Source: Rhodothermales bacterium (lineage in GTDB: Bacteria > Bacteroidota > Rhodothermia > Rhodothermales > JAHQVL01). Taken from it: a stretch of DNA of 64,000 bases. Positions within the stretch are counted from its first letter, which is position 1, and each line of letters opens with the position of its first letter. The notes beneath the pieces were generated by a model. It searched no databases and was not told the origin of the DNA. It worked only from the letters and a program-made list of their open reading frames with translations. Shown here in pieces: positions 589 to 4,894 of the stretch. The stretch covers positions 292,540 through 356,539 of the forward strand of contig JAWKNW010000004.1 in assembly GCA_041391505.1 (NCBI GenBank). The letters run 5' to 3'. A program made the position numbers and the translations under genes.

Positions 589-1371
589 ATGACGATATTC
601 GAAAAACTCTTCCGGCTCGACGGTAAGGCCGCGCTGGTCACCGGCGGATACGGCGGCTTCGGCGCCGCGGTGTGCGAAGGCCTCGCCGAAATGGGCGCCG
701 GCATCGCCGTGGCCGGCCATAACGCCGAAAAAGCCGAACACTTTGCCGGGCAGCTGCGGGCCAAGGGCGTCAATGCAATCGCCGCCCCCTTCGACGCCTG
801 CTCGATGGAGGATACCCACCGCATGACCGACGCCGTGGCGAAGCATTTCGGCCGGCTGGACGTCCTGGTCAACACCGTCGGCGGCAACACGCACGCTGAA
901 CTGGCCGATGAGGTCACCGAGGAAGGCTTCGGCAAGGTGCTCGAGCTCAATCTCACCAGCGCCATGTACCAGGCGCAGGCCGCGGCGAAACACATGAAGG
1001 CCTCCGGGGGCGGCAAGCAGGTGCATTTCGGCTCCGTGCGCGGCCTGCTGGCGCTGCGCGGCAAGGGCTTCGCGGCGTATTGCGCGTCCAAGGCCGGCCT
1101 CACCGTGCTCTGCAAACAGCTCGCCGGCGAGTGGGCGCCGGACAAGATCAATGTCAACGTCCTTTCGCCCACGTTCATCCGCACCGAGCAGTCGGCGCGG
1201 TTCCTGGCGGACAAGGCGTTTTACGACAGCGTCGTCTCGCGCATCCCCGTCGGGCGCGTCGGCGAGACGCTGGACATCGTCGGCGCCACGCTGTTTTTTG
1301 CGTCGCCGGCGGCCGACTTCATCACGGGGCAGACGCTGTATCTCGATGGCGGCCTCACCGCCACCCAATAG
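589..1371 (+). CDS. Short-chain dehydrogenase/reductase (SDR) family oxidoreductase
   Basis: 260 aa. N-terminal TGGYGGFG (TGxxxGxG) nucleotide-binding motif, catalytic YCASK (YxxxK), typical C-terminal GQTLYLDGG. Confidence 0.9.
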
Positions 1372-1387
1372 CGACCAACAGACCATC

Positions 1388-2848
1388 ATGAAGAATTACA
1401 TAGCAGGCGAGTGGCGGAAGTCCTCCGCCGTAGAAGCGTTTCCGGTCATCAATCCCGCGACCGGTGAGGAACTGGGGCGCACCCCGCTGTCGCCGGCCTC
1501 GGAAGTCGACGCCGCCGCGCAGGCCGCCGCGGCCGCTTTCCCCGCATGGCGCCGCGTGCCCGTCGCCGACCGCATCCAGTACCTGTTCAAGCTGAAGGGT
1601 TTGCTCGAGGAGCACTTCGACGACATCTCCCGCACCATCACCCTCGAGTGCGGGAAGACCCTTGCGGAGTCCCGCGGCGAGATGCGCCGGGCGATCGAAA
1701 ACGTCGAGGTCGCGTGCGGCGCCCCGATCATGATGCAGGGCTACAACTCGGAAGACATCGCCCGGGGCATCGACGAGACCATGATCCGGCAGCCGCTGGG
1801 TGTCGTGGCCATCATCGCGCCGTTCAACTTTCCGGGGATGATCCCCTTCTGGTTCCTGCCCTACGCGATTGCGACGGGCAACACCGTCGTGATCAAACCC
1901 TCCGAACGCGTTCCGATGACGATGCAGAAGGTGTTCGGTCTCATCGAGACGCTCGGCCTGCCGCCCGGGGTGGTGAACCTCGTCAACGGTGGGCGCGACG
2001 TGGTCAACGCCATCCTCGATCACCCCACCATCAAGGCGGTGAGCTTCGTCGGTTCGACCGCCGTCGCCCGCCACGTGTATTCGCGCGCCACGGCGAACGG
2101 AAAACGCGCCCAGTGTCAGGGCGGCGCGAAAAACCCCGTCGTGGTGCTTCCGGATGCGGATCTGGGCAAGGCGACGGAGATCATCGCCGACAGCGCCTTC
2201 GGCTGCGCCGGCCAGCGATGCCTGGCCACCTCGATGGCGTTCGTCGTCGGCGAGGCCCGCAAGCCGTTCATGGAGGCCATGCGCGATCGCGCGGCGTCCC
2301 GGAAGACCGGCTTCGGCCTGGAGGAAGGGGTGCTGATGGGGCCCGTGATCTCGTCGCAGAGCAAATCGCGTGTGGAGACGCTAGTCGATCAGGCGCTGAA
2401 GGACGGCGCGCGCGCCGTGGTCGACGGCCGCCAGCCGGCGATCGCCGGCTACCCGGACGGCTATTTCGTGGCGCCGACGATTCTGGAGGAACTGCCGTTC
2501 GAGAGCGCGGTCGCCTCGACGGAGATCTTCGGGCCGGTGCTGTCGGTCCATTACATGGACGACATCGAGTCCGCCATCGCCCGCGTCAACGCCGGCTCGT
2601 ACGGCAACCAGGCGTCGCTCTTTACCGGCAGCGGCGCGAGCGCGCGGCGGTTCAAATACGAAGCCGACGCCGGCAACATCGGCATCAACATCGGCGTCGC
2701 CGCGCCGATGGCCTTCTTCCCGTTCAGCGGCGCCCGCGAGAGCTTTTTCGGCGACCTGCACGGGCAGGGCCGCGATTCGTTCGAGTTCTACACGAAAAAG
2801 AAAGTGGTCGTCGAACGCTGGCCCGATACGTGGTCCCGCACGTTCTAA
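1388..2848 (+). CDS. mmsA: CoA-acylating methylmalonate-semialdehyde dehydrogenase-type aldehyde dehydrogenase
   Basis: In-frame ATG at 1388 ([12 protein letters not shown]...) inside longer ORF 1151..2848. ALDH motifs [17 protein letters not shown], catalytic Cys in [10 protein letters not shown]. The overall N-terminal pattern matches MmsA/IolA-type enzymes. Confidence 0.85.
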
Positions 2849-2851
2849 AGG

Positions 2852-2874
2852 CCTTCATCGTGCAACGATGAAGG
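2852..2874 (+). terminator. Stem-loop right after the mmsA stop (weak terminator candidate)
   Basis: CCTTCATCG (2852-2860), loop TGCAA, CGATGAAGG (2866-2874): perfect 9-bp stem followed by GTTTC. The T-run is short. Confidence 0.4.
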
Positions 2875-2902
2875 GTTTCAGGTTCAAGGTTTCAGGTTCA
2901 AG
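2875..2902. repeat. Tandem 14-mer GTTTCAGGTTCAAG x2 (GGTTCAAGG-type intergenic repeat family)
   Basis: Exact tandem duplication 2875-2888 / 2889-2902. Related GTTCAAGG / CCTTGAAC motifs recur at 43434-43464, 47411-47422, 47879-47910 and 59936-59982. Confidence 0.8.
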
Positions 2903-2967
2903 GTATACTGCGAAGAGGCCTTTCCGGCTCTCGGAAGTTGTTCTCATCATCAACCCGCCCAACGATT

Positions 2968-3933
2968 ATGGATCGCCGAACGTTTTTGCAACGGAGTAGT
3001 CTGGTGGCGCTGACGGCCCCCCTGTGGTCGTGCGCGCCGAAGGAATCTGGCACCGAAGCGGCCGCCACCGGCGCGTCGAATGACGCGGCGAAGCTGGCGC
3101 GTATCGGCATCACGACCGTTTGCATCCGCTCGTATTTCGAGAAGACGCGCACGATGCTGGCGGAGCCCAACTCGGCTCCCACCATCAACCTCGAAGCCGC
3201 GCCGCAGTTTATCTACGACCACTTCGGCCTCCGGAACGTGGAGGTGTGGGATTATCAGTTCGACGACCTGTCGCTCGCCTATTGCGAGCGGGTTCGTGCC
3301 GCGGCGGAGAAGATCGGTTCGCGCATCGCCAACATCCAGGTGGATGTGCTCGCGGACCTGTCGGATCCGAACCCCACCCAGCGCGCGCTGGGCGTGACCC
3401 AGGCGAAGGAGTGGGTCGACCGCGCGGTGGCGATGGGCGTGCCGAACTTCCGCGTCAACACCGGCGGCAAGGAAGGCCAGGAATTCAAGCTCGCCGAGAC
3501 GGTCGAATCGTTCCGGCAGATCGCCGACTACGCCGGCGAAAAGGGCGTGATCGTCCTCGTCGAAAACCATGTCGGGTTCAGCATGGACATCGACAAGGTG
3601 GTGGCCATCGTCTCGACGCTCAACCATCCGAACTGCAAGACGCTCGCGGACTACGGCAACACGCCGGCGGGCACGACGCAGGACCGGATCGACGGGCTCA
3701 AGAAGCTCTTCCCGTGGCTGCAGTTCGTGTCGGCCAAGGGCACGGGCTTCAACGATCAGCTGGAGCATAGCGACTACGACTTCGCCGCGCTCGTGCGCGC
3801 CACGGAGGAGTCGGGGTACCGGGGCATCTATTCGATCGAGATGTGGCCCGACGCCGACAGCCAGCCGCCGGCCGACCCGATCAAGGCCGGCAACTGGATG
3901 AAGGATCAGCTCCTTGCCAACATCAGCGCGTGA
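2968..3933 (+). CDS. TAT-exported xylose-isomerase-like TIM-barrel protein (sugar phosphate isomerase/epimerase family), paralog 1
   Basis: Start chosen at MDRRTFLQRSS (twin-arginine motif), followed by ...LWSCAP (possible lipobox Cys). Body shows family-typical VLVENH and a YRGIYSIEMW C-terminal region. Confidence 0.8.
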   Translation: MDRRTFLQRSSLVALTAPLWSCAPKESGTEAAATGASNDAAKLARIGITTVCIRSYFEKTRTMLAEPNSAPTINLEAAPQFIYDHFGLRNVEVWDYQFDDLSLAYCERVRAAAEKIGSRIANIQVDVLADLSDPNPTQRALGVTQAKEWVDRAVAMGVPNFRVNTGGKEGQEFKLAETVESFRQIADYAGEKGVIVLVENHVGFSMDIDKVVAIVSTLNHPNCKTLADYGNTPAGTTQDRIDGLKKLFPWLQFVSAKGTGFNDQLEHSDYDFAALVRATEESGYRGIYSIEMWPDADSQPPADPIKAGNWMKDQLLANISA

Positions 3934-3943
3934 GGTGCGGCGC

Positions 3944-4894
3944 ATGAACCGTCGCGTCTTTATTCAGCAGAGCGGCCTCGTCGCGGCTTCCGCCGCGTTC
4001 TGGTCGTGTTCGCCGGGCGATGCCCCCTCGGCGGCGGCCTCGGCCGATGCGAAGCTCGCCCGTATCGGGATCACCACGGTGAGCCTGCGGTCGCGCTTCG
4101 CGCAGACCCACGAGATGATGGCGGAGCCCTACGAGGGGCCGATGCTGAATCTGGAAACAGCGCCGGCGTACATCGCCGGCGAGCTGGGGCTGCACAATGT
4201 CGAGGTCTGGGAGCGCCAGTTCGACGATACCTCCATCGCCTACTGCGAGCGGGTGCGGGCCGCCGCCGAGCGGGCCGGCTCCCGGATCACGAACATCCAG
4301 GTGAGCGGGCTGGCGAATCTGTCGTCGATGGACGCCGACGAGCGGGCGCAGGGCGTTACCCAGGCCAGGGAGTGGGTCGACCGCGCCGTGGCGATTGGCG
4401 CGCCCAGCATCCGTGTCGACGCCGGCGGACGCGCGGGCGACCCGTTCGATCTTGCGGTGACGGTCGATTCGTATCGCCGGATCGTCGATTATGCGGGTAG
4501 CAAGGGCGTCGTCATCCTCGTCGAAAACCACAGCGGCTTCACGCGGGACATCGATACGGTCGTCGCCATCATCGAGGCCATCGAAAGCCCGAACTGCCGC
4601 GCCCTGGCCGACTACGGCAACACGCCGGCGGGAAGCATCGAGGACCGGATCGCCGGGTTGCAGAAGATGCTGCCGTACCTGGCCTTCGTCTCGGCGAAGG
4701 GGACGGGGTTCGACGAGCAGATGAGGCATTCCGACTACGACTTTGCCGCGCTCGTCCGCGCCACCGAGGCCTCCGGGTACCGGGGTATTTATTCGATCGA
4801 GATGTGGCCCGACGCCGATAGTCCGCCGCCGGCCGATCCGCTGCGTGCCGCGGGCTGGATGAAGGACCAGCTGATCGCCAACATCGGCGCCTGA
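3944..4894 (+). CDS. TAT-exported xylose-isomerase-like TIM-barrel protein, paralog 2
   Basis: Start at MNRRVFIQQSG (twin-arginine), then ...FWSCSP. Collinear with the upstream paralog along the full length and roughly two-thirds identical by eye. Only 10 bp separate the two genes. Confidence 0.8.
   Translation: MNRRVFIQQSGLVAASAAFWSCSPGDAPSAAASADAKLARIGITTVSLRSRFAQTHEMMAEPYEGPMLNLETAPAYIAGELGLHNVEVWERQFDDTSIAYCERVRAAAERAGSRITNIQVSGLANLSSMDADERAQGVTQAREWVDRAVAIGAPSIRVDAGGRAGDPFDLAVTVDSYRRIVDYAGSKGVVILVENHSGFTRDIDTVVAIIEAIESPNCRALADYGNTPAGSIEDRIAGLQKMLPYLAFVSAKGTGFDEQMRHSDYDFAALVRATEASGYRGIYSIEMWPDADSPPPADPLRAAGWMKDQLIANIGA

Follow-up and report, generated by a model that had tools for sequence, protein, structure and literature searches.

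Two putatively Tat-exported TIM barrels in a Rhodothermales genome as candidate carbonyl-processing partners of PQQ dehydrogenases

In a 64,000-nt stretch of a Rhodothermales genome (hereafter the window, located on contig C4, JAWKNW010000004.1, of a 6.27-Mb genome with 65% G+C), two adjacent genes encode xylose-isomerase-like TIM barrels, TIM1 and TIM2. We consider it reasonably likely that these barrels are metal enzymes exported by the twin-arginine translocation (Tat) pathway and probably anchored to lipid, which would deprotonate their substrate beside a carbonyl made by co-regulated pyrroloquinoline quinone (PQQ)/haem dehydrogenases, working alongside DUF1080/FG-GAP proteins. Our proposals on reaction and substrate, on lipidation and on the sequence of steps are inferences from features that are directly visible: the leaders, the subfamily and its conserved residues, the gene neighbours, natural fusion proteins and a promoter module found twice in the window.

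Subfamily and fold of the barrels

Both proteins belong to PF01261 (AP_endonuc_2), scoring 90.8 and 99.2 bits against a gathering cut-off of 31.1, and the AlphaFold model of TIM1 has eight strand-helix units with a mean pLDDT of 92.9. Within this fold they are members of a medium-sized uncharacterised subfamily, whose sole solved member is PDB 4OVX, a structural genomics entry from Planctomyces limnophilus described as a xylose isomerase domain protein. Among solved structures, the family profile retrieves 4OVX with E 2e-50, far above any other barrel; the next matches are D-tagatose 3-epimerases (E 9e-12), the Art22 isomerase and UlaE. Structure comparison also places 4OVX first (Z 31.3 over 261 residues). 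The subfamily motifs ENH, D-x-G-N, S-A-K and I-E are all present in TIM1 and TIM2, and 4OVX shares them in the form ENH, D-F-G-N, V-S-A-K and I-E, although it is only 22-23% identical to the two barrels. The residue numbering of 4OVX begins at 44, which fits a removed leader. A scan of 1.84 billion representative proteins returned 303 clusters at E <=1e-30, which puts the family at about 300 clusters at 50% identity. Our literature search found no paper on 4OVX or on a module of PQQ enzymes with TIM barrels.

TIM1 and TIM2 fall outside all curated families of isomerases, IolE, lyases and deglycosidases. NCBIfam gave just 3-4 matches (E 6e-5 to 7e-4), to L-ribulose-5-phosphate 3-epimerase and the 5-keto-L-gluconate epimerase IolO, with 19-23 bits against cut-offs of 200-317, and no match of either barrel to the hydroxypyruvate isomerase, IolE or IolI models. 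The first-pass annotation of this DNA would have been contradicted by firm clustering with cytoplasmic isomerases such as hydroxypyruvate isomerase or IolE, and no such clustering appeared. The barrels do not cluster with known eliminases either: the C-glycoside deglycosidases match the family profile at E 2e-4 to 0.3. The IolE structure gave E 0.55 with the same profile and the IolI structure Z 23.7.

Export leaders and lipid anchoring

The leader of TIM1 (MDRRTFLQ) continues with 15 uncharged residues and that of TIM2 (MNRRVFIQ) with 21, and both then reach W-S-C. A Tat substrate was defined here by a twin-arginine motif followed by at least 13 uncharged residues, together with a Tat system in the genome; both barrels have this arrangement, and TatC is encoded in the host genome. 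In an alignment of 39 members of the barrel family (A1), R3 and R4 are invariant in 39/39, and the Pfam TAT_signal model scores on one family member. Because of the leaders, the invariant arginine pair and TatC, export of both barrels by the Tat pathway, already folded, is very likely. The public gene call for TIM1 (P0001) starts at MALTAPLWSC, 12 residues past the true start, and so loses the twin arginines; this case indicates that the export signal of the family can be lost from sight through gene calling.

Behind the hydrophobic core, the Cys is kept in 16 of the 19 members of the well-supported Rhodothermales-like clade that holds TIM1 and TIM2, and the residue preceding it throughout the clade is always G, S or A, as signal peptidase II requires. 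Two copies of this peptidase (LspA) are encoded in the genome. When compared with the lipobox pattern [LVI][ASTVI][GAS]C, which closes the signal peptide of bacterial lipoproteins, the Cys and positions -1 (S) and -3 (L/F) fit, while position -2 is a Trp, which standard patterns exclude. The conservation of [GSA]-C across the clade argues for lipidation, and we suggest that TIM1 and TIM2 are probably lipid-anchored through Cys22. The Cys is a trait of the clade and not of the whole family, as most Acidobacteriota relatives are without it and have Ala-x-Ala-like sites further on. Thus, the twin-arginine leaders and the possible lipid anchor of the first-pass annotation are upheld, and the WSC that it called conserved is indeed present in both barrels, although its Cys is limited to the Rhodothermales-like clade.

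The four PQQ/cytochrome c dehydrogenases of the window (4/4) have Sec-type leaders ending in the canonical lipoboxes LAGC, AAAC, LASC and LAGC. They are likely to be lipoproteins rather than soluble periplasmic enzymes, in which case both partners, PQQ enzymes and barrels, would be membrane-tethered. Sec-type leaders were also seen in the DUF1080/FG-GAP proteins DF2 and DF3 (the leader of DF1 was read only in part).

Elsewhere in the genome, contig C45 encodes at about 12.7-13.7 kb a xylose-isomerase-like paralogue (26% identity) whose twin-arginine leader ends in a lipobox (MNRRIFLR...PLAC). A crude genome scan yielded 57 candidates that combine a lipobox with an early RR pair, and clear twin-arginine leaders are visible in several of these.

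Conserved neighbourhoods and fusion proteins

We collected 48 related loci and used the proteins of the window to score them, counting neighbourhoods among barrels with at least 36% identity. A PQQ dehydrogenase lies within 5 kb of the barrel, mostly adjacent to it, in 17 of about 36 non-redundant loci. These belong to Acidobacteriota, Alphaproteobacteria (including two cultured Novosphingobium species) and unclassified proteobacteria, and often contain DUF1080 and/or FG-GAP proteins as well. In Novosphingobium resinovorum (L032), for example, the genes for the barrel, a PQQ-cytochrome c enzyme, a DUF1080/FG-GAP-like protein and a TonB-dependent receptor form one row. Five host genomes contain 7 to 54 PQQ-domain matches each, and even for a genome with 54 matches, one of them would come to lie within 5 kb by chance in no more than about 9% of cases (binomial P <=1e-9). 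Shared ancestry inflates this statistic; the pattern nonetheless spans phyla.

Natural fusions link the barrel to carbohydrate-active domains. A Tat signal, the barrel and a C-terminal DUF1080 domain are joined in P0212 (found on two independent contigs) and P0215, and an N-terminal GH127 glycosidase domain is joined to the barrel in P0141. All three (loci L049-L051) carry the signature residues of the family, on contigs just 2.4-5 kb long. Longer fused forms (630-2000 aa) were searched for and none was found, a search that gives weak evidence. DUF1080 enzymes act as 3-keto-alpha-glucoside lyases and as 2-hydroxy-3-keto-glucal hydratases, and together with the TIM-barrel lyases AL1/BT1 they act on 3-keto-glycosides in the periplasm (bioRxiv 10.1101/2024.03.25.586180). 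These fusions are the strongest pointer to a barrel that would act on keto-carbohydrates. The connection with DUF1080 proteins in the first-pass annotation is therefore backed by gene neighbourhood, by the TIM-DUF1080 fusions and by the shared promoter module described below.

A second neighbourhood was found in 12 loci of Rhodothermales and Acidobacteriota, with a transaldolase-like gene directly upstream of the barrel and genes for a short-chain dehydrogenase/reductase (SDR), a UPF0261 protein, a cyclase, a molybdenum (Mo) hydroxylase and an MFS symporter. The window and several other loci combine both neighbourhoods. In L005 (Acidobacteriota), the cyclase gene ends 1 nt ahead of the start of the barrel gene. 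The same locus has no UPF0261 gene and encodes in this gene block, next to its Mo hydroxylase genes, a PPDK_N and PEP-utilizers pair resembling phenylphosphate synthase (5083-6326). This may be a swap of one kinase type for another, which fits a phosphorylation step.

The second set could also belong to a cluster degrading an aromatic or heterocyclic compound, with the barrels acting on a non-sugar carbonyl. The only known activity of a UPF0261 protein, a conserved neighbour here, is that of the ATP-dependent aromatic kinase MarK (PMC12624787). The phenylphosphate-synthase-like pair of the UPF0261-less L005 points in the same direction, as do a Mo hydroxylase of the xanthine-dehydrogenase/4-hydroxybenzoyl-CoA-reductase type, a cyclase-family hydrolase and an ABM protein. 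Yet the fusion partners of the barrel are carbohydrate-active domains, its neighbours include DUF1080 and sugar-type PQQ enzymes, the transaldolase-like gene stands directly upstream of it in 12 loci, and the closest curated models of the SDR are sugar and sugar-acid dehydrogenases (glucose 1-dehydrogenase, gluconate 5-dehydrogenase). We regard a non-sugar route as improbable.

In the first-pass annotation, the cytoplasmic SDR and a CoA-acylating dehydrogenase were proposed to process the released products. The SDR is a conserved neighbour, with homologues in 13 related loci, and inspection of its leader revealed no signal peptide. The CoA-acylating enzyme, a methylmalonate/malonate-semialdehyde dehydrogenase (MMSDH), is a much less regular partner, as it neighbours the barrel only in the Rhodothermales loci L001-3 and L007 and in one Novosphingobium locus (L044). 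A reading of MMSDH and the two barrels as an inositol (iol) operon was also considered, and was set aside in view of the Tat leaders and the missing IolE and IolI matches.

Conserved residues of the active site

Invariant or near-invariant positions in A1 are E92, R162, E199-N200-H201, D228-x-G-N, S255-A256-K257 and E291. E199 and N200 are invariant, H201 is present in at least 90% of members and Ser255 is at least 90% conserved. When aligned with UlaE, E199, D228 and E291 fall on canonical metal ligands. A Glu-x-His on strand 5, an Asp on strand 6 and a Glu on strand 8 form the pattern reported for C-glycoside deglycosidases, where the metal is coordinated by the Glu of strand 5 and a His located two residues further serves as catalytic base (PMC10628242). 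In the O-glycoside beta-eliminase AtOGE, Mn is bound by His132 (strand 5), Asp163, His189 (strand 7) and weakly Glu233, and the catalytic base is His134, again two residues past the strand-5 ligand (PMC10628242). Over their Glu-x-His stretch, the barrels can be aligned with the deglycosidase chains 7bvr, 7xrf and 9m3b. A strand-5 ligand with a His two residues later is thus present in TIM1 and TIM2, its equivalence to His143 being taken from the aligned ranges, and no counterpart of the strand-7 ligand His189 of AtOGE is found, as Ser255 stands there instead. The eliminase-type site foreseen in the first-pass annotation is consequently there in part, with Glu-x-His, Asp and Glu in place and the strand-7 His replaced by Ser. 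The His/Asp/His triad with a Glu of AL1/BT1 is not reproduced: by residue spacing only (178/211/237/272 against 199/228/255/291), the counterparts are Glu, Asp and Ser, with the fourth-position Glu kept. No chain named AL1 or BT1 was found among the solved structures with the family profile at E up to 10.

The same residues are compatible with a different outcome, in which the barrels would be periplasmic epimerases or isomerases of keto-sugars or ketoses from the PQQ enzymes, and not lyases. Both Glu residues of ketose 3-epimerases are kept (E199 and E291), and the epimerase and isomerase matches that follow 4OVX among solved structures, as well as the weak NCBIfam matches, go in this direction. 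Against it, although not decisively, the aligned epimerases are without the Glu-x-His (E-T-L in tagatose epimerase, E-I-M in UlaE), and the fusions to a DUF1080 lyase/hydratase domain and to a GH127 glycosidase point to bond cleavage. We hold such an epimerase or isomerase role to be unlikely, but a serious competitor.

The barrels could otherwise be dehydratases of oxidised cyclitols, like the 3-dehydroshikimate dehydratase AsbF/QuiC or the inosose dehydratase IolE, and would then follow a PQQ dehydrogenase of the quinate, shikimate or inositol type. It is true that the best curated model for the PQQ domains is the glucose/quinate/shikimate family TIGR03074 (377 bits vs 208 for the methanol/ethanol family) and that an IolA-type MMSDH sits in the operon. 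AsbF also aligns over strands 5 to 7 (E 2.6e-5), its E-T-H facing the E-N-H of the barrels and its Lys facing K257. However, the IolE model gave no match and its structure only the marginal value mentioned above, no ring-cleavage or other iol genes were seen among the window genes scanned, and the DUF1080 and GH127 fusions favour glycosides. This makes a cyclitol dehydratase a poor candidate in our opinion.

Promoter module and candidate oxidases

The same 38-bp promoter/operator module occurs upstream of the SDR operon and before the PQQ/DUF1080 array, just past the AraC gene, which bears out the shared module described in the first-pass annotation. It consists of a pair of directly repeated half-sites, AAAAATCC.CC and CAAAAATTACC, at a distance of 21 bp, and the two copies are identical at every specified base. 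No such match is expected by chance (0 in 100 shuffles), and no further copy at <=7 mismatches was found in the 6.27-Mb genome. On contig C3, a degenerate direct repeat at 4973-5003 resembles an AraC-type module and may be a further copy; a DUF1080/FG-GAP gene follows it at a distance of 56 bp. That gene (C3:5059-6975) encodes a fourth DUF1080/FG-GAP paralogue, 46% identical to the protein at 16434-18662.

The oxidase proposed in the first-pass annotation was another enzyme, a GMC flavoenzyme encoded at 31016-32548, after which the barrels would perform the bond-cleaving step. This protein is similar to the catalytic subunit of FAD glucose dehydrogenase (E 2e-28) and to that of fructose dehydrogenase (E 2e-19), members of a GMC group that includes glucoside 3-dehydrogenases, and it is encoded in the same window as the barrels. 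It has, however, no signal peptide and no adjacent small subunit carrying a Tat signal. Its gene forms a separate unit 26 kb from the barrels, between unrelated genes for a beta-lactamase-fold protein and a carboxylesterase, and is not preceded by any copy of the promoter module in the genome scan. Among the 48 related loci, a GMC homologue is near the barrel in only one, where the barrel is a 29%-identical outlier. The GMC enzyme as the linked oxidase is thus very improbable, and this part of the earlier proposal is not upheld. Two GMC paralogues, 54% identical, are encoded on contigs C6 (100245-101849) and C43 (8645-10183).

Proposed pathway and points against it

We suggest the following sequence of events. 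Lipid-anchored PQQ/haem-c dehydrogenases would turn a hydroxyl of a sugar, glycoside or cyclitol into a ketone, passing the electrons to the respiratory chain. The metal site of the barrel (Glu199, Asp228, Glu291) would bind the ketone carbonyl, and His201 or Glu291 would take the neighbouring proton to give an enolate. This could then expel a leaving group by beta-elimination, as in a lyase or dehydratase, or be reprotonated, as in an epimerase or isomerase; we tentatively place the lyase or dehydratase outcome ahead of the second one, without giving it strong odds. The DUF1080/FG-GAP proteins would work on the same keto intermediates, and the MFS symporter would import the product, which the SDR, the UPF0261 kinase-like protein and other enzymes of the operon would then process in the cytoplasm. 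A periplasmic step following oxidation, as first annotated, is retained in this pathway, with the PQQ enzymes and not the GMC enzyme as the predicted oxidase.

Several observations weigh against this proposal. The subfamily is uncharacterised, and its reaction is one that we infer from sequence and context. The fold does not help: epimerases, Art22, C-glycoside deglycosidases, YcjR and IolI tie at Z 24-26 (26.1 being the next value after 4OVX), so that fold comparison with Foldseek and VIA-align, tried as a way of choosing the reaction, did not separate lyases from epimerases. Ser255 aligns to the strand-7 metal His (H-V-K-D motif in UlaE), a residue present in AtOGE, C-glycoside deglycosidases, AL1/BT1, UlaE and ketose epimerases, and the mutation of which leaves AtOGE with <0.1% of its activity (His189; PMC10628242); with Ser in this place, the metal site and even the chemistry may differ. 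In about a third of the loci, the barrel is found with the cytoplasmic set instead (transaldolase-like protein, UPF0261, cyclase, Mo hydroxylase), and short contigs of Verrucomicrobiota and Planctomycetota show neither context. The substrate may not be a sugar, since the characterised UPF0261 protein phosphorylates aromatic compounds. The Trp at position -2 of the lipobox is atypical, being found in 3/356 crude lipoprotein candidates of the host genome. Finally, a weak hairpin at 2921-2937 makes it not certain that the barrel genes are co-transcribed with those of SDR and MMSDH.

Extended to the whole subfamily, the proposal would make the 4OVX-like barrels the missing carbonyl-processing partner of PQQ/haem-c dehydrogenases and DUF1080/FG-GAP proteins in a respiration-coupled periplasmic cleavage of glycosides or polyols. 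They would act there as lyases or isomerases whose metal site is of a new kind, with Ser in the place of His. We put this generalization forward as a speculative and rather doubtful one. With about 300 clusters, one orphan crystal structure and a cultured host in N. resinovorum, the family makes the hypothesis directly testable.

Gene complement of the window

A single run of plus-strand genes spans 589-14171 and is followed directly by the PQQ/DUF1080 array (Table 1). The four genes first annotated here (SDR, aldehyde dehydrogenase and two TIM barrels) are all on the plus strand, and their list and coordinates are correct. Their starts are also right except for that of TIM1, whose true start is ATG 2968 and not TTG 2938, since homologues begin at MDRRTFLQ.

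Table 1. Annotated features of the window and the evidence for them.
Feature	Position	Strand	Evidence or remark
Promoter/operator module, copy 1	288..325	+	upstream of SDR operon
SDR, cytoplasmic short-chain dehydrogenase/reductase	589..1371	+	adh_short_C2, E 3e-51
MMSDH, CoA-acylating methylmalonate/malonate-semialdehyde dehydrogenase, MmsA/IolA type	1385..2848	+	TIGR01722, 523.2 bits vs cut-off 448.5
TIM1, xylose-isomerase-like TIM barrel, 4OVX-like subfamily, Cys22	2968..3933	+	PF01261, E 1.5e-25
TIM2, TIM1 paralogue, same leader type (Cys22) and same conserved residues	3944..4894	+	PF01261, E 4e-28
UPF0261 protein	5003..6220	+	conserved neighbour in 12 loci
Cyclase-family metal hydrolase	6360..7079	+	PF04199; conserved neighbour
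Three-subunit molybdenum hydroxylase, whole	7101..10502	+	conserved neighbour
Molybdenum hydroxylase, FAD subunit	7101-7937	+	
Molybdenum hydroxylase, Mo subunit	about 7927-10050	+	
Molybdenum hydroxylase, 2Fe-2S subunit	10056-10502	+	
ABM monooxygenase-like protein	10811-11104	+	
Histidine-phosphatase-like protein	11101-11817	+	
NupG-type MFS symporter	11842-13137	+	
AraC-family regulator	13146-14171	+	
Promoter/operator module, copy 2	14242..14279	+	before PQQ/DUF1080 array, just past AraC gene
Array of three PQQ dehydrogenases with inserted cytochrome c, interleaved with three DUF1080+FG-GAP propeller proteins	14483..27221	+	Pfam
PQQ/cytochrome c dehydrogenases of the array	14483-16654, 20842-23082, 23083-25284	+	
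Fourth PQQ/cytochrome c dehydrogenase	35733-37964	-	

TIM1 and TIM2 are 64% identical across their full length, and both copies have orthologues kept in relatives (L001 copy 2; P0008). The nearest public relatives of the window are Rhodothermales metagenome bins. The order of the ABM, histidine-phosphatase-like, NupG-type symporter and AraC genes is identical in the Rhodothermales contigs L001-L003, and a fragmented Rhodothermales metagenome-assembled genome carries orthologues of the PQQ array at 80%, 73%, 68% and 55% identity.

In Rhodothermales relatives (L001:8848-9939) and many Acidobacteriota loci, a 363-aa transaldolase-like gene is located between the aldehyde dehydrogenase and TIM1 genes. 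No match to it above 50 bits, our reporting threshold, was found in the host genome by tblastn. The corresponding place in the window (2849-2967) is a 120-bp spacer with a tandem repeat at about 2875-2902 and the hairpin mentioned above.

Comparison with known systems

The best-scoring characterised relatives of the barrels are the ketose 3-epimerases and UlaE (D-tagatose/D-psicose 3-epimerase and L-ribulose-5-phosphate 3-epimerase, E 9e-12 to 1e-7). They share the Glu, Asp and Glu metal and base residues with TIM1 and TIM2, and differ by having the strand-7 His and lacking the Glu-x-His motif. These enzymes are not known to be exported.

AtOGE and the C-glycoside deglycosidases (PuCGE/DgpBC, CarBC) are closer in the arrangement of the active site, with a strand-5 ligand, a His two residues on, a strand-6 Asp and a strand-8 Glu, and the deglycosidases share the Glu-x-His itself; the sequence matches of this group to the barrel family are marginal, with the E-values given above for the deglycosidases. 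The main text of PMC10628242 mentions no signal peptide or periplasmic location for them. The deglycosidases have a second, different subunit (PMC10628242), whereas TIM1 and TIM2 are two similar full barrels.

With regard to the setting, the nearest parallel is the 3-keto-glucoside lyase AL1/BT1 of Alistipes and Bacteroides, exported TIM barrels of the same Pfam family, which, together with a DUF1080 enzyme, act on a sugar ketone from a periplasmic oxidoreductase and whose catalysis is metal-dependent with a Glu base (bioRxiv 10.1101/2024.03.25.586180). The periplasmic location of this fold, put forward in the first-pass annotation, therefore agrees with the leaders and is not new, as AL1/BT1 already has a secretion signal. 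The signal of AL1 is of the Sec type, while those of TIM1 and TIM2 are of the Tat type, and its oxidase is an NAD-bound Gfo/Idh/MocA enzyme, where the partner proposed here is a PQQ/haem enzyme.

Oxidative, non-hydrolytic cleavage of glycosides has recently been worked out in gut Bacteroides and in Agrobacterium, via NAD- or FAD-dependent oxidases. Our model resembles these 3-keto-glycoside systems by analogy, with barrels that are outside their enzyme families and a predicted oxidase of a different kind. If the barrels do partner PQQ/haem dehydrogenases, the same chemistry would be wired straight to the respiratory chain, and would operate in abundant soil phyla rich in quinoproteins without known substrates. 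Such a respiration-coupled route would be widespread in soil Acidobacteriota, Rhodothermales and sphingomonads, as a quinoprotein counterpart of the NAD-dependent 3-keto-glycoside pathway of Bacteroides.

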